Translations under genes and position numbers: made by a program
The notes under the pieces: model-generated
Told to the model about the DNA's origin: nothing
Seen by the model: the letters and a program-made list of their open reading frames with translations, nothing else
The model's database searches: none
DNA from: Cupriavidus necator
GTDB taxonomy: Bacteria; Pseudomonadota; Gammaproteobacteria; Burkholderiales; Burkholderiaceae
Length of the DNA stretch: 32,000 nucleotides
Assembly (NCBI RefSeq): GCF_016127575.1
Contig: NZ_CP066019.1
Coordinates: 2,880,555-2,912,554, forward strand
Reading direction: 5' to 3'
Shown: positions 21,224 to 26,425 of the stretch, piece after piece
How positions within the stretch are numbered: the first letter of the stretch is position 1
Layout of the letters: the number at the start of each line of letters is the position of its first letter

Positions 21224-22738
21224 ATGAAAAAGACCTTACTGGCGTCGGCTATCGCCATGGCATTTGCGGGACAGGCCTGGGCAAATCCGACCAATAACAA
21301 CGACGTGGTAAGAGGTGGCGGCGACAACACGCAAACCGCCACAGCGACCTCGACGCAGAGTGGCAGCGGCGCGGCGGCAAACGAATATTCGACCGCAGTC
21401 CAGGCCAATGACAGCAGCACCAACACCAGAACCACCACGGTTGGCGTCAACAAGACCAAGACCACGACCAACTCGAACAACAGGAGCAGGATCGACTTTG
21501 ACCATGGCGTAGGCAACGCGGGCTCCAACGGTGGCAGCGCAACCTCCAGCGTAAGCAACGCCTTCAACACCAGCAAGGCACTGGCGATCAGCAAGCTGAA
21601 TGGCACGGTTTCCAACAACAGCATTGGCCCGATCGGCAATTACGCCACCAACTGGGGTAACGCGAATGGTGCAGCCGGTGGCCGGGGCGGCAATGGCTTT
21701 GGCGGTACCGGCGAAGGCGGGCGCGGCGGCAACGGCGGCAACGGCGGTAACGGCGGCAGCGGCGGCTCCGGTGGCAGCGCTACCAACGGTAGCGCCACCA
21801 ATGGCGACGCCACCAACGGCAGCGCCAACGCTGGTAATGGCGGTGCCGGCGGCAAGGCGATTGGCTGGGCCGGCAGTGGCGGTGACGGCAAGGCATATGG
21901 CGGCAGCGCACTCTCCGCAGCGGGCAGCAAGGGCGGCAGCGGCGGCGATGCTTATGGCAAGGGCGGCGGCGCTCTGAGCGCATCGCTCGGCGCCGGCGGC
22001 CGCGGCGGCAGTGCCGGCGCGATCGGCGGTGGTGGCCTGGGTGCCAGCGGCGCCCTGGGCGGCTTGGCAGGTTCGGCCGGCGGCTCAGGTGGTAGCAGCG
22101 GCAATGCCAACGGTGCGGGTGGCGACACTACCACTGGCGGCGCAGGCGGCGCAGGCGGCGCAGCGGCCGGTACCAACACGGCTGGCGCAGGCACCGGTTC
22201 GGGCGGCGCAGGTACCGCGAGTGGCGGTGCGGGCGGTGCCGGAACGGCAGCTGCAGGCGCGACCGGCGGAGCCGGCAGCGGCACCGGCGGTGCCGGTGGC
22301 GCGGGCGGCGCGGCGACCTCGACCGCAACGGCGGGCGCGGCAAGCGGCACCGGCGGCGCGGGCGGCACGCAAGCCAGCGTTGGCGGCGCGGGCGGTACTG
22401 GCGGTTCGGCCACGAACGGCAGCGCAACGAGTTCGGCCTCCAATGGCAGCTCCACGGCTGGCAACGGTGCGGTGGGTGCTACCGGCGGCGCGGGCGGCGC
22501 GGGCGGCACTGGCAATGGCGGCACTGGCGGCACCGGCAACGGCGCAGTCGGCGGCGCTGGCGGTAATGGCGGTTACAACATTGTTGACGCGGGCACCTTC
22601 AATATGTCCAACACCATGACCAGCGTTGGTCAAACGGCGGCGGGCATCATGATGGCCAACCAGAACAGCGGCGCTGCCTCGCTCGTGCAGCAAAGCGTGA
22701 ACGTTCAGGCCAACCTGCAGGTCGGCGGCAACCGGTAA
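21224..22738 (+). CDS. Secreted 504-aa glycine-rich (GGAGG/GGN, PGRS-like) protein; putative major cargo or fibre subunit of the C39/barrel operon
   Basis: GGGAG SD and signal peptide MKKTLLASAIAMAFAGQAWA. The order of regions is DVVRGG, a T/N/S-rich segment, about 306 aa of Gly/Ala/Ser/Thr/Asn low complexity (nt 21656-22573), and a C-terminal Q/N module ...TAAGIMMANQNSGAASLVQQSVNVQANL. The mature part has no Cys. Confidence 0.8.
   Translation: MKKTLLASAIAMAFAGQAWANPTNNNDVVRGGGDNTQTATATSTQSGSGAAANEYSTAVQANDSSTNTRTTTVGVNKTKTTTNSNNRSRIDFDHGVGNAGSNGGSATSSVSNAFNTSKALAISKLNGTVSNNSIGPIGNYATNWGNANGAAGGRGGNGFGGTGEGGRGGNGGNGGNGGSGGSGGSATNGSATNGDATNGSANAGNGGAGGKAIGWAGSGGDGKAYGGSALSAAGSKGGSGGDAYGKGGGALSASLGAGGRGGSAGAIGGGGLGASGALGGLAGSAGGSGGSSGNANGAGGDTTTGGAGGAGGAAAGTNTAGAGTGSGGAGTASGGAGGAGTAAAGATGGAGSGTGGAGGAGGAATSTATAGAASGTGGAGGTQASVGGAGGTGGSATNGSATSSASNGSSTAGNGAVGATGGAGGAGGTGNGGTGGTGNGAVGGAGGNGGYNIVDAGTFNMSNTMTSVGQTAAGIMMANQNSGAASLVQQSVNVQANLQVGGNR
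21725..21838 (+). repeat. In-frame tandem repeats inside the glycine-rich gene: 9-bp units (GGC GGC AAC/AGC) x6, then 15-bp units (GCC ACC AAC GGC AGC) x4
   Basis: Read directly. Positions 21725-21778 encode GGN GGN GGN GGS GGS GGS. Positions 21779-21838 encode ATNGS ATNGD ATNGS ANAGN. Confidence 0.85.
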
Positions 22739-22751
22739 GGCGTGCAGCCAC

Positions 22752-22784
22752 GGTCTGGCCCGGGACTTGTGCCCGGGCCAGACC
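22752..22784 (+). terminator. Perfect 13-bp GC-rich hairpin 14 nt after the stop of the glycine-rich gene (attenuator or terminator candidate)
   Basis: GGTCTGGCCCGGG-acttgtg-CCCGGGCCAGACC. No U-tract follows. Confidence 0.45.
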
Positions 22785-22805
22785 GGCAGCTCGCACTCAT
22801 GCCGG

Positions 22806-22848
22806 CAGGACCGGCGCCCGCATCCTGTGTGCGGGCGCGCGGGTCCTG
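22806..22848 (+). terminator. Second compound hairpin (7 + 9 bp) in the same intergenic gap
   Basis: CAGGACC g GCGCCCGCA-tcctgtg-TGCGGGCGC gcg GGTCCTG. The loop shares YTGTG with the first hairpin. No U-tract follows. Confidence 0.35.
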
Positions 22849-22923
22849 TCATGCCCCAAGCAAGCCTGATTGCCTTGCAGCCGTCCGGATGGGGGCGGCC
22901 GGCAGGCAAGGGGAGACGACATC

Positions 22924-23358
22924 ATGCAATCGGTCCGCTTCGCCGTCGGCGCATTCGCGACGGTCTTACTCGCCTGGCCAGTGCTGCAGGCGCACGCTGA
23001 GCCGCCAGGGCTGGACGCCGCCATGGCAGCGGCGCGCGCTGCTTCTGGCGCTGCCCCGGACACGGCTGCAATCACCGCACAGCCGACGGCCGCAACTTCC
23101 TTGTTCGGAGGGGTGGCGAAAGCCGTACCCGTGTCTAAACTGGATGACATCCGTGGCGGCGCCGAGGTCACGGTCAACGATATGCGCCTGCACGGTACCG
23201 TGGCCGACAACGCCGCGGTCAATATTCTGTCCGGCACCAACAACATCGCGGACGGGGCCTTCTCGAATGCGGCAGGGATTCCCACCGCGATCCAGAACTC
23301 GGGCTCCAACGTACTGATCCAGAACGCCACTATCGTCAACGTCCAGTTCAAGCAATGA
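22924..23358 (+). CDS. Secreted 144-aa protein with internal double-glycine motif and C-terminal Q/N module (putative minor subunit or nucleator)
   Basis: GGGGAG SD and signal peptide MQSVRFAVGAFATVLLAWPVLQAHA. An Ala/Pro-rich pro-region ends in VSKLDDIRGG. The C-terminal 65 aa end in ...NAAGIPTAIQNSGSNVLIQNATIVNVQFKQ. The stop overlaps the next ATG (ATGA at 23355-23358). Confidence 0.75.
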   Translation: MQSVRFAVGAFATVLLAWPVLQAHAEPPGLDAAMAAARAASGAAPDTAAITAQPTAATSLFGGVAKAVPVSKLDDIRGGAEVTVNDMRLHGTVADNAAVNILSGTNNIADGAFSNAAGIPTAIQNSGSNVLIQNATIVNVQFKQ

Positions 23359-24053
23359 AGCCGCTGCGAAACCTGTTGGCGTCTGTACCGTTCTTGCTGG
23401 CCGCGGGGGGCGTTCCATGTGCCCAGGCTGCCGACACCCTGATATACGGGCCGGTCGGCGAGTCCTACAACGTCCGGGTCACGAGCGTGCGCGAGGCTCG
23501 CTTCAAGTCCACGATCCGGCAGCAGTTCGACTTCAGCTGCGGCTCGGCCGCGGTGGCCACGCTGCTGAGCTACCAGTACGGCCATCCGATGAATGAGGCC
23601 ACGGTCTTCCAGAACATGTACCTCAACGGCGACCAGCAGAAGATCCGCGCCGAGGGGTTCTCGCTGCTCGACATGAAGCGCTTCCTGGCCGCGCTCGGCT
23701 ATGAGGCGGACGGCTACGAGCTGCCACTGTCCAAGCTGGAAGAGACGCAGGTGCCGGCCATCGTGCTGATCGTGGAGAACGGTTACCACCATTTCGTGGT
23801 GGTCAAGGGCGTGAAGGGCGACCGCGTGCTGATCGGCGATCCCGCACGCGGCACGCGCGCGATGTCACGCGAGCATTTCGAGCAGATCTGGGACAGCCAG
23901 CTGCTGTTCGTGATCCATAACCGCACCGAACGGGCGCGGTTCAACCTTGCAGCCGACTGGCGCGTTGCGCCGAGCGGTCCTTACTGGATGGGAGTCAACC
24001 GGGATAGCTTGTTCTTCACCGTCATGCCCAAGCATGGCGCGGGCGATTTTTGA
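23355..24053 (+). CDS. Periplasmic stand-alone C39-family cysteine peptidase (FapD-like)
   Basis: Signal peptide MKPLRNLLASVPFLLAAGGVPCAQA. Gln56 and Cys62 sit in RQQFDFSCGSAAVATLL (Q six residues before C). His146 sits in GYHHFVVVKG and Asp162 in LIGDP (His-to-Asp spacing of 16). This is the canonical C39 catalytic arrangement. Confidence 0.85.
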   Translation: MKPLRNLLASVPFLLAAGGVPCAQAADTLIYGPVGESYNVRVTSVREARFKSTIRQQFDFSCGSAAVATLLSYQYGHPMNEATVFQNMYLNGDQQKIRAEGFSLLDMKRFLAALGYEADGYELPLSKLEETQVPAIVLIVENGYHHFVVVKGVKGDRVLIGDPARGTRAMSREHFEQIWDSQLLFVIHNRTERARFNLAADWRVAPSGPYWMGVNRDSLFFTVMPKHGAGDF

Positions 24054-24063
24054 GGAACGCATC

Positions 24064-24909
24064 ATGTTGCAGACTTCCTTCCCGACCCCAGCAGCCCCTC
24101 GCAGCGCCGGTCATGCGGCCGCGGCGATGCTGCTCGGGGCCGGTTTGGCCTGTGCCGGCACGGCGCAGGCCACCATGCTGCCACAGCCCGACGCCCTCGA
24201 CGCGTCGGCGCTTCCATTGCAGGGGGCCATGCCCTCGAGCGACGGGCAGGACCAAAACCCTCTGGCTGCCGCACGCGGCAGCATGGCCGGCTGGAAACCG
24301 GTAGCACACGAAAAACTCGACGACATGCGGGGCGGCTTCGAAGTGCCGGGCCTGCAGGTTTCGTTCGGTATCGAACGCGCGGTGTACATCAACGGGGCCC
24401 TGGTGGTTGCCACCAGCATTAACATCCCCGATGTCAGCCGTATCACCGCCGACCAGGCTGCGCGGCTTGCCTCGACGCTGGGCCCGGCCATCGTTGCCAG
24501 CACCAATGCGGCGGTCGCCAACGCGCTGGCGGCGGCGGGCGCGGCCGGTTCGGATGGGAGCGCCACCTCGGCGGCCAATGGCGCCTCGGCCAGCAGCACC
24601 GGCACGTCCGGGGCCGGTTCGGGCGCCAGCGGTGCGGCGGGCTTGCCGGCGGCGGTGGTGAATACGGCCACCGGTCAGGTCGTGAGCAATGGGCTGTTGA
24701 ACGTGATCCAGAACGGCCCGGGCAATGCGGCATCGGTGGGATCGCTGGCGGGGACGCCAACGACCGTGATCCAGAACACCTTGAACAACCAGAGCATCCG
24801 GAGCCTGATGACAATCGACGCAAGCGTAAATACGCTGCAGGCATTCCGGTCGCAGTTGGCCAACACCACGCTGAACAACGCGCTGATGCGGGCCGCAAGC
24901 ATGAGGTAG
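24064..24909 (+). CDS. Secreted 281-aa protein with internal double-glycine motif, beta-rich core, G/A/S linker and degenerate Q/N module (FapE-position protein)
   Basis: GAGGAA SD and signal peptide ...AAAAMLLGAGLACAGTAQA. The pro-region ends in HEKLDDMRGG. It continues with FEVPGLQVSFGIERAVYINGALVVATSINIP, a Gly/Ala/Ser stretch, and then LLNVIQNGPGN...SLAGTPTTVIQNTLNNQ. Confidence 0.75.
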   Translation: MLQTSFPTPAAPRSAGHAAAAMLLGAGLACAGTAQATMLPQPDALDASALPLQGAMPSSDGQDQNPLAAARGSMAGWKPVAHEKLDDMRGGFEVPGLQVSFGIERAVYINGALVVATSINIPDVSRITADQAARLASTLGPAIVASTNAAVANALAAAGAAGSDGSATSAANGASASSTGTSGAGSGASGAAGLPAAVVNTATGQVVSNGLLNVIQNGPGNAASVGSLAGTPTTVIQNTLNNQSIRSLMTIDASVNTLQAFRSQLANTTLNNALMRAASMR

Positions 24910-24985
24910 TCGTAGCGAGGCATCGGGCAGTACAGGTCGCAGGCTCCTGCAAGAACAGCCTGCCGTCCCGGGGGAGGAAGACGTC

Positions 24986-26425
24986 ATGAAGAAGCGGTCG
25001 ATGCAGGGCATTCGCAATGCGGGATGCTCGACGTTACTGTTGCTCGGCGGCCTGGCGCAGGCCCAGACGCCGCCGGATGCGGGACCACCCGCAGCCGGAC
25101 TGGAAGCACTGCAGAAGGAGCTTGCCGAACAGGCCACCCAGCTCGACGCCATGAAGCGGGCGCTGGCCGAACAGGAGGCGCTGATCCGCGAACTGCGTAA
25201 CGTGATCGGCACCGAGGTGCTGGCCAACAAGCGCGGCGGCCAGCGCGCGGGGCCAGGCGTGTCGCCGTCCGACAATGCCACCAACGCCGCTACCGCGGCG
25301 GCCGCTGCCAGCGCCACCCAGTCAGCGCCCAACGCGGTCAACAACCCGCAGCAGATCATTCTCCAGCCACCGCAGGACATGGCCCAGGGTCCGCAGGCGG
25401 GCGAGTCCGCCGACCGGCAGACCGTGGCCCTGGAAGAACCCGTGGGCCGCCCGCCGGAGGAAGACCGCCGTCCGCCTGAGATCGCGCCGATCATCGACCA
25501 GCCCGGCGTGCTGACCGCCCAGGGCAAGCTGGTGATCGAGCCCGGCTTCCAGTACGGCTATTCGTCCAATAACCGCGTCGCGCTGGTCGGCTACACGGTC
25601 ATCCCGGCCATCCTGATCGGCCTGGTCGATGTGCGCGAAGTCAAGACCTCGACCTACATCCCGTCGGTAGCGTTTCGCTACGGCCTGACCAAGCGGCTGG
25701 AAATCGAAGCCAAGGTGCCTTACGTGCACTCATCGGGCCAGACAGTCAGCCGCGAGGTCTTCACCGGCACGGCCGTCGACCGCGTGTTCAATGCGAGCGG
25801 CAGCGGTATCGGCGACGTCGAGGCGACGGTGCGCTACCAGCTCAACTACGGCAACGAGAAGATTCCGTACTTCGTCGGCTGGCTGCGCTACAAGTCCAAT
25901 ACCGGCACCGACCCGTTCGAGGTCGTGACCGACTGCGTGACGCGCTGCGTGGGCAATGCCACCGGCACCGGCCTGCCGCTCGGGTTGCCCACCGGCACCG
26001 GCTTCCAGGCGATCCAGCCCGGCATCACCTGGCTGCTGCCGACTGACCCGGCGGTGTTCTTCGGCACCTTCAGCTACCTGCACAACTTTGCGCGCGACAA
26101 CGTGAGCCGCACCGTGCTGAACGGCGAGAAGGAGAATCTCGGCAAGATCGCCCCCGGCGACATCTTCGAGTTCAGCTTCGGCATGGGCCTGTCGCTCAAT
26201 GAGAAGGCGTCGTTCAGCATCGGCTATGACCAGGCCATCATCTGGCCGACCAAGCAGAACGGCCAGACCGTGCCGGGCTCGGTGCGCGTGACCCAGGGCA
26301 CCTTGCTGGTGGGCTATTCGTACCGCTTCAACAACCGCTACACGGTGAACCTTTCAGTGGGTGCGGGGCTGACGCGCGACACCCCCGACCTGCAGGTGAA
26401 CCTGCGCCTGCCAATCACTTTCTGA
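24986..26425 (+). CDS. Outer-membrane beta-barrel with N-terminal coiled coil and disordered linker (FapF-like; MetA/phenol-degradation-type barrel fold family)
   Basis: GGAGGAAG SD and a signal peptide ending LAQA. A clean 5-heptad a/d pattern runs L39 L42 L46 Q49 L53 M56 L60 Q63 I67 L70 I74 (nt 25100-25207). It is followed by about 90 aa of A/P/Q/N-rich linker, then alternating beta-strand sequence ending ...VNLRLPITF with a terminal Phe. Confidence 0.8.
   Translation: MKKRSMQGIRNAGCSTLLLLGGLAQAQTPPDAGPPAAGLEALQKELAEQATQLDAMKRALAEQEALIRELRNVIGTEVLANKRGGQRAGPGVSPSDNATNAATAAAAASATQSAPNAVNNPQQIILQPPQDMAQGPQAGESADRQTVALEEPVGRPPEEDRRPPEIAPIIDQPGVLTAQGKLVIEPGFQYGYSSNNRVALVGYTVIPAILIGLVDVREVKTSTYIPSVAFRYGLTKRLEIEAKVPYVHSSGQTVSREVFTGTAVDRVFNASGSGIGDVEATVRYQLNYGNEKIPYFVGWLRYKSNTGTDPFEVVTDCVTRCVGNATGTGLPLGLPTGTGFQAIQPGITWLLPTDPAVFFGTFSYLHNFARDNVSRTVLNGEKENLGKIAPGDIFEFSFGMGLSLNEKASFSIGYDQAIIWPTKQNGQTVPGSVRVTQGTLLVGYSYRFNNRYTVNLSVGAGLTRDTPDLQVNLRLPITF

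Follow-up and report, generated by a model that had tools for sequence, protein, structure and literature searches.

A conserved double-glycine-type leader motif in two proteins flanking the C39 peptidase of a Fap-like operon of Cupriavidus necator

FapD of the Pseudomonas functional amyloid (Fap) system is periplasmic, and its catalytic cysteine is required for secretion of FapC (Rouse et al. 2017, PMC5557850). Processing of FapE, and perhaps of FapF, by FapD has already been proposed for Pseudomonas (PMC5557850). The substrate and recognition site of FapD have been left undefined since 2013–2017, and reviews up to December 2025 state only that FapD is "thought to process FapE and FapF". FapD-like enzymes belong to the C39 peptidases, whose substrate rules have been described: the leader helix places the residues at −4, −7 and −12 in a hydrophobic groove, the channel narrows at the site of proteolysis, so that small residues (GG, GA or GS) occupy the cut site, and the ComA consensus is L(−12)-x3-E(−8)-L(−7) (PMC6363468). 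Here we analyse a stretch of 32,000 nucleotides of Cupriavidus necator DNA (contig NZ_CP066019.1; hereinafter designated the window), which contains a cluster of five genes, A–E, all on the + strand at 21224–26425. Judged by its sequence, the cluster is a non-canonical Fap-like operon. The two genes next to that of its C39 peptidase, C, namely B and D, encode proteins with a leader-like double-glycine motif.

Gene B (22924–23358, +) encodes a small secreted protein of 144 residues, and gene D (24064–24909, +), which occupies the position of fapE, encodes a protein of 281 residues. Both proteins start with a predicted signal peptide (22924–22998 in B, 24064–24171 in D), followed by a spacer, which is Ala/Pro-rich in B, the leader, and a mature part (23161–23355, the 65 residues after G-G, in B; 24337–24906 in D). 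The leader module of B, V-A-K-A-V-P-V-S-K-L-D-D-I-R-G-G, lies at 23113–23160 (+; positions −16 to −1; RGG at 23152–23160), and that of D, G-W-K-P-V-A-H-E-K-L-D-D-M-R-G-G, at 24289–24336 (+; positions −16 to −1; RGG at 24328–24336). A preliminary description of the window had reported an internal double-glycine-type motif behind a predicted Sec signal in B and D. This observation is confirmed, including the hydrophobic residues at −12, −7 and −4 and the G-G, and the sequences and coordinates that it quoted for A, B, D and E were all correct on re-check.

The motif in B and D is far beyond chance. A position-specific scoring matrix (PSSM), trained on other genomes only and scanned over the window in six frames, gives 42.4 bits for D and 34.6 bits for B, while the next best six-frame match in the window reaches 16.4 bits. 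In composition-preserving shuffles, L...RGG appears in 0.18% of B sequences and 0.97% of D sequences. That the RGG is merely a chance match in Gly/Arg-rich proteins of a high-GC genome is ruled out for B and D by these shuffle probabilities (0.0018 and 0.0097), by PSSM scores that stand apart in the window, and by conservation of the motif over hundreds of protein clusters; as a general explanation we hold it to be extremely improbable. It does fit protein A. A motif had been claimed for all three cargo proteins, A, B and D; the claim stands for B and D on conservation, PSSM score and shuffles, and falls for A. The V-V-R-G-G of A (N-N-D-V-V-R-G-G; 21305–21319, +) has no Leu at −7, A contains four RGG in all, and RGG occurs in 56% of A shuffles. 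Of 27 distinct A orthologues, only that of the window itself has the N-terminal RGG, and the nearest relative (L001) has E-V-E-G-G-G in its place. L...RGG was found in none of 68 A orthologues. We rejected A as a leader-bearing protein, its RGG being expected by shuffling and absent from the 26 other distinct orthologues.

Conservation was assessed in 80 loci around C homologues from Burkholderiales and Xanthomonadales, representing at least 15 genera (Cupriavidus, Ralstonia, Paraburkholderia, Burkholderia, Pandoraea, Polaromonas, Variovorax, Rhodoferax, Lysobacter, Pseudoxanthomonas, Luteibacter, Dyella and others). L-x3-R-G-G is present in both immediate neighbours of the peptidase gene, upstream B and downstream D, in nearly all of these loci; the few exceptions among B proteins have L-x-E-M-S-G-G or L-A-G-K-R-A-G. 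The sequence logo of 68 B and 69 D distinct windows contains G/W(−15), A/P(−13), V/I/L/M(−12), L(−7), D more often than A or E(−6), a mostly hydrophobic residue(−4), R(−3), G(−2) and G(−1), with His or Tyr also found at −4 of B. Because the logo windows had been picked by a regular expression, conservation was re-tested by a profile search that used none. A D-family profile, comprising the leader and the N-domain and built from Cupriavidus sequences, was searched against 1.84 billion representatives and detected 1017 clusters (50% identity) at an E-value of 1e-3 or below. Among the 154 domains in the top 150 proteins of this search, L(−7) is present in 154, R(−3) in 153, G(−2) in 151 (Ala in the remaining 3) and G(−1) in 153 (Ala in the remaining 1). 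Position −4 is hydrophobic (M/L/V/I) in 137 of the 154 and position −12 is V, I or L in 136, while W(−15) is found in 91 of 93 aligned domains. Natural variants in the D and B families keep small residues, as in R-A-G and S-G-G. Alignment of orthologues thus finds L, R, G and G near-invariant in the D family and the motif kept in B, and leaves the RGG of A unconserved.

The similarity between B and D is confined to the 21-residue leader (hhalign E-value 2.8e-6), and their mature parts are unrelated. The segment after G-G is 63–70 residues long in B (72 loci) and of constant length, at least 115 residues, in D. The +1 residue lies at position 28–109 in B orthologues and 41–423 in D orthologues, and the low-complexity spacer before the motif ranges from ~0 to ~750 residues. 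Pro-regions of 54 residues in B and 55 in D, as counted earlier, are right for the predicted signal-peptide sites (residues 25 and 36, respectively), but their near-equal length is a coincidence, the +1 position varying widely among orthologues. In some D orthologues the leader is present two or three times in tandem (L021; P0071, P0074). Because it is shared alone by the otherwise unrelated B and D and occurs alone in tandem copies, the leader behaves, by these comparisons, as a portable signal and not as a fold element. In other D orthologues the leader follows 650–750 Ala/Pro/Ser-rich, apparently disordered residues (P0355, P0367, P0307, P0350), and R-A-G replaces R-G-G in P0367 and P0350.

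If the motif instead opened the fold of the mature domains as a helix cap plus a β-hairpin, and owed its conservation to folding, B and D would be diverged paralogues and the motif would have no signal function. The AlphaFold2 (AF2) model of D has moderate confidence over the leader (block means ~71–80, against 64 just after), and conservation in D continues unbroken into the next ~25 residues, as this view would have it. However, nothing common to B and D is detectable outside the 21-residue module, it is the module alone that is duplicated in the tandem D orthologues, canonical FapE, with a very different mature part, obeys the same spacing rules, and the motif always adjoins a C39 gene. We consider such a structural role quite improbable.

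Gene C (23355–24053, +) encodes a FapD-like, stand-alone periplasmic C39 cysteine peptidase of 232 residues with a predicted signal peptide at 23355–23429. It matches Pfam PF03412 (Peptidase_C39) with an E-value of 8.9e-25 (score 87.5 against a cut-off of 22) and the LahT150, PCAT1 and ComA domains in the PDB with E-values of 1e-8 to 1e-4, the LahT150 alignment spanning both catalytic motifs. Its matches to the NCBIfam models FapD (6.7e-43, score 146.5, cut-off 330) and FilB (1e-39, score 136.6, cut-off 475) are below the cut-offs. The catalytic residues Cys62 (23538–23540, +), His146 (23790–23792, +) and Asp162 (23838–23840, +) are invariant in 13 diverse C homologues, and the core of the AF2 model of C has a predicted local distance difference test score of 74–93. 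The earlier pairing of the motif with a periplasmic C39 enzyme is supported by tight linkage to a stand-alone, Sec-exported C39 protein with invariant catalytic Cys, His and Asp. No ABC (ATP-binding cassette) exporter was found among the operon genes in the list of open reading frames (ORFs) or by Pfam scan.

The motif had also been called a match to the classical C39 consensus. This is correct for the hydrophobic residues at −12, −7 and −4 and for the G-G; it is incorrect in that Arg(−3) is an additional invariant residue and that position −8 is basic or polar and not Glu. Specifically, position −8 of B and D is R, K or Q instead of the Glu(−8) of the ComA consensus, and position −6 is Asp. 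The AF2 model of D has a helix over residues 82–88, corresponding to positions −9 to −3, just before G-G.

Three further observations concern C. Genes B and C overlap at ATGA (23355–23358), where the stop codon of the former shares nucleotides with the start codon of the latter, which suggests translational coupling of the leader-bearing B with its presumed peptidase. C-type peptidases have a conserved C-terminal extension, F-N-x3-D-W-R-V-A-P…G-[PA]-G-D-F (23920–24050 in the window), which ABC-fused C39 domains lack and over which the confidence of the AF2 model is low. A 367-residue protein (P0124) was considered as a natural B–C fusion and rejected; it is a chimeric C39 duplication.

An analogous leader is present in canonical Fap systems. 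We compared the fap operons of P. synxantha, Aeromonas caviae and 80 metagenomic loci. Canonical FapE contains F-K-P-I-E-L(−12)-x-D-x-E(−8)-L(−7)-x-x-L(−4)-R-G(−2)-[R/K](−1)-[Y/F]-V-M-P-G-R-I-I-S-F-G-I, with RGR in 32 of 33 distinct sequences and RGK in the other one. It thus has the ComA-type L(−12)-x3-E(−8)-L(−7), but Arg or Lys at −1. In 77 of 80 loci the pattern follows fapD within 300 nt, and it is hardly ever seen elsewhere; it was not found in FapB or FapC, and a tblastn search of the FapE N-terminus against plasmids gave no match. The D segment W-K-P-V..L-D-D-M-R-G-G-F-E-V-P-G-L-Q-V-S-F-G-I aligns with FapE F-K-P-I..L-A-x-L-R-G-R-Y-V-M-P-G-R-I-I-S-F-G-I, while the match of the D hidden Markov model to FapE is weak (1.3e-4 and 0.06 with Z=1). 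D is probably a remote FapE homologue, mainly on the grounds of gene position and this local N-terminal alignment. Intermediate forms also exist: D of Croceicoccus and Polymorphobacter has RGG while their B-like proteins have A-G-R and A-G-K, D of Indioceanicola has V-G-R, and both B and D of Photobacterium have RGG.

Two side observations were made in the canonical loci. In the metagenomic fap-like loci L154 and L156, a second protein with …L-E-x-I-R-G-R-Y-V… is encoded ~3.6 kb upstream of fapD, besides FapE. The fapE of P. synxantha (L081, 7600–8390) is frameshifted, its N-terminus, middle and C-terminus lying in three frames and only its last 128 residues being annotated; either the gene is a pseudogene or the assembly is in error.

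We favour, as moderately probable, a two-step maturation of B and D, in which signal peptidase would act first and C would then cleave in the periplasm at or beside the G-G. Since cutting of FapE and FapF by FapD has been proposed earlier, the concept of two-step maturation is not new. Sec would export B and D, and after the signal-peptidase cut a pro-region would remain, consisting of a disposable variable spacer and a leader of 16–18 residues. The leader, Phi(−15)-x-[AP]-Phi(−12)-x4-L(−7)-[DEA]-x-Phi(−4)-R-G-G (Phi, hydrophobic), would form a short amphipathic helix that docks in a hydrophobic groove of C, with G-G entering the narrow active-site channel as in ABC-fused C39 domains. A cut at or next to G-G would release mature domains of constant length, ~65 residues for B and at least 115 residues for D. 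The released domains would cross the outer-membrane barrel E, or assemble at it, together with the leaderless Gly-rich A. The L-x3-R-G at the junction of the coiled coil and linker of E may be a second, weaker site. We infer binding to C, cleavage, the scissile bond and the effect on export from sequence comparison.

Several observations weigh against cleavage at G-G. FapE has Arg or Lys at −1, B-like proteins of Sphingomonadales have A-G-[RK], and position −1 of the barrel E varies (R-A-R, R-G-E, R-G-T); bacteriocin-type C39 enzymes are not known to accept such residues. The basic residue at −1 of FapE and the lack of constraint on −1 in E would mean either another scissile bond, for example after G(−2), or no cleavage. 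The residues that differ between C-type and FapD-type peptidases include no gain of acidic residues that would explain Gly versus Arg at −1. Conservation in D runs on past G-G (F/Y at +1, S-F-G-I and N-G blocks), which could equally well reflect one continuous functional or structural unit. Published mass spectrometry data on FapE count on both sides: they contain no peptide from residues 1–71, which speaks for cleavage, but the earliest peptide detected begins at residue 72 and not at 41, which speaks against it.

The barrel protein E bears on both cleavage and its main alternative. Gene E (24986–26425, +) encodes a FapF-like outer-membrane barrel of 479 residues with an N-terminal coiled coil (~25100–25240) and a low-complexity linker, and matches the NCBIfam models FapF (9.2e-42, score 143.3, cut-off 700) and FilC (5.8e-10, score 39, cut-off 630) below their cut-offs. 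At the end of the coiled coil it has the weak motif V-I-G-T-E-V-L-A-N-K-R-G-G (25202–25240, +). The K-R-G-G (residues 82–85, 25232–25240), which had been pointed out before, indeed falls in a block that is conserved across genera in an alignment of 49 orthologues made with MAFFT. The block, L-[AD]-x-x-R-[GA]-x-G, occurs as LANKRGGQ, LANARARG, LDDLRGEG, LDAERGAG and LGTQRARG and is found in Burkholderiales, Xanthomonadales and Sphingomonadales. It shares L(−7), R(−3) and G/A(−2) with the motif of B and D, with −1 free, and the N-terminal profile of E has its best local match to B and D in the register of the motif, although weakly (hhalign E-values 0.019 and 0.028).

The alternative holds that the leader is not cleaved but serves as a targeting or docking signal for the coiled coil or the pore of the FapF-like barrel, or recruits the peptidase as a chaperone; G-G would then be only a helix stop. 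An analogy is CsgA, whose N-terminal 22 residues target it to CsgG. A docking role would account for the L-[AD]-x-x-R-[GA] of E, which lies precisely where the coiled coil ends on its C-terminal side and shares the register of the B and D motif, although the similarity of E to B and D is statistically weak (E-value ~0.02). It would also account for the tolerance of R, K, E, T and L at −1 across FapE, B-like proteins and E. Against a docking role stands the specific match of the leaders to the C39 rules at −12, −7, −4, −2 and −1. Some C39-like domains are non-catalytic substrate binders (PMC5557850); yet the catalytic triad of C is invariant and the catalytic Cys of FapD is needed for secretion, so something must be cut, and the long, hypervariable low-complexity spacers look disposable. 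Docking is moreover compatible with cleavage, not exclusive of it. As a replacement for cleavage, we regard it as rather unlikely.

The C-terminal tail of canonical FapD is relevant to both roles of the leader. It is highly conserved (F-x-P-V-x-D-x-E-L-[ML]-[DE]-F-G-F-[IL]-x-S-D-F-F; L081, L085, L090–L169) and resembles the FapE leader F-K-P-I-E-L-x-D-x-E-L-x-x-L-R-G-R-Y. This leader-like tail might serve as a pseudo-substrate or provide a shared docking element; the resemblance of F-x-P-V-x-D-x-E-L-x-x-F-G-F to the FapE leader, as if the partners shared a docking site, is in keeping with a docking role.

Two-step maturation may extend beyond this operon. In a generalization that we advance tentatively, as possible but short of probable, all FapD-type periplasmic C39 peptidases would recognize and cleave their substrates at Phi(−12)-x4-L(−7)-x2-Phi(−4)-R-G-[G/R/K]. 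Double-glycine processing would then have a periplasmic, Sec-dependent form, at work in canonical Fap (on FapE) and in a far greater number of uncharacterised Fap-like operons (at least 1000 protein clusters); cleavage of FapE-like proteins, of B and perhaps of the barrel junction would license or gate export via the FapF-type pore, and the peptidase tail would be a pseudo-substrate. In the literature that we searched, we found no prior description of a defined consensus or FapD recognition site, of the module in two unrelated proteins that flank the peptidase, of its extent (at least 1000 clusters), or of its equivalence to the FapE N-terminus.

Secretion of the Pseudomonas biofilm amyloid requires FapD-type peptidases, and the leader consensus makes the question of their substrate directly testable, linking the Fap maturation step mechanistically to the well-understood leader recognition by C39 enzymes. 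The same logic holds for Fap-like operons of Burkholderiales, Xanthomonadales, Sphingomonadales and Vibrionaceae, which form a large family with misleading annotation. If cleavage takes place as proposed, double-glycine-type processing also occurs away from the cytoplasmic face of ABC exporters, and the leader would provide a means of blocking fibre or biofilm export and a starting point for engineered periplasmic release tags.

All five proteins have a predicted Sec-type signal peptide at the N-terminus, called with a crude hydrophobicity heuristic. Gene A (21224–22738, +) encodes a secreted protein of 504 residues with 31% Gly and a predicted signal peptide at residues 1–20; it is probably the main cargo, a fibre or matrix subunit in the role of FapC without the FapC repeats. 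Its conserved N-terminus contains …NQTATATSTQ…, and it has low-complexity runs such as GGAGG- and NGSATNG-like ones. The many long ORFs that overlap A in the remaining frames are artefacts of high GC content. The C-terminal domain of A (22574–22723) weakly resembles the mature domain of B (hhalign E-value 2.7e-4, 35 columns); they share the pattern G-x-N-x-[IV]-x-x-G-x-F…G-I…Q-N-S-G…L-[IV]-Q. All E orthologues have a conserved segment before the barrel, P-V-G-[RQK]-x-P-E-x3-R-P-P-E-[IV]-A-x-I-[FI]-[DE]-Q-P-G-V-L-T (PVGRPPE..RPPEIAP at 25439–25498, +, in the window), which may be the counterpart of the plug helix of FapF. In D, Cys30 in the hydrophobic core of the signal peptide (G-L-A-C-A-G; 24064–24171) is nearly invariant in Cupriavidus orthologues, and a Cys recurs at a similar place in Burkholderia-type D sequences; the context of D Cys30 does not match a strict lipobox.

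A, B and D have zero Pfam or NCBIfam matches, a comparison of 108 D-family members with NCBIfam returned nothing relevant, and a Foldseek search of the D model against the PDB gave no meaningful match (best E-value 0.78). D is 100% identical to a Cupriavidus necator protein, and B and E are identical to the C. necator H16 proteins CAJ94862 and CAJ94865. Public names (NCBI, UniRef) are misleading for D ("flagellin") and E ("acetate kinase"), and the NCBI name of B is "conserved hypothetical periplasmic protein".

Compared with the Pseudomonas Fap system (fapABCDEF), in which FapF is a trimeric barrel with a coiled coil, the operon has the same order around the peptidase, namely cargo, C39 protein, FapE-like protein and FapF-like barrel, and Sec signals on all components. 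It differs in that C and E score far below the FapD and FapF cut-offs and are homologous but not equivalogs, that the cargo consists of the 31%-Gly protein A and the extra small leader-bearing protein B, and that the leader ends in G-G, in contrast to G-R or G-K in canonical FapE. Pfam detects no FapB/FapC repeats (PF27129) in A or B, whereas a real fap operon does show PF27129, and the operon has no FapA-like gene.

The Acinetobacter Fil system is alike in that C matches FilB, E matches FilC, and a gene for a Sec-exported protein, FilA, lies directly upstream of the FilB gene. The scores are below cut-off, however, and the rest of the operon differs, FilA having M-D-D-A-A-L-S-A-A-T-G-Q-D-G after its signal peptide and no L-x3-R-G-G. 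In A. baumannii filA (L082, 5705–6553) this element reads M-Q-S-M-D-D-A-A-L-S-A-A-T-G-Q-D-G-I-N-I-G just past the signal peptide, and it may be a different type of leader for the Fil branch; FilB is frameshifted in the same strain. Because C and E match the Fap and Fil models only below the curated cut-offs, the locus is a relative of both systems and a member of neither.

In the LapG/LapA system and the type V pilus, a cysteine protease of the periplasm or envelope trims the N-terminus of a surface protein delivered by Sec or by a type 1 secretion system, and this step controls release or polymerisation of the protein at an outer-membrane channel. The protease LapG is transglutaminase-like and cuts A-A, and that of the type V pilus is a gingipain that cuts after Arg. 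The likeness to both is in concept only, as the protease families, recognition sites and channels differ.

With the double-glycine leaders of class II bacteriocins, competence peptides and lanthipeptides, which are cut by the C39 domain of PCAT/AMS ABC transporters (ComA, LahT, PCAT1), the motif shares a predicted helix that bears hydrophobic residues at −12, −7 and −4, and a terminal G-G (rarely A-G); its partner enzyme is a member of the same peptidase family with identical catalytic residues. Unlike those leaders, it is internal, behind a predicted Sec signal and a spacer, and lies 54–55 residues past the predicted signal-peptidase site; it has an invariant Arg(−3) and, in this clade, no Glu(−8). 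The enzyme is free in the periplasm and not a cytoplasmic domain of an exporter, in a system that has no ABC transporter, and its putative substrates are domains of 65 to more than 115 residues instead of short peptides.

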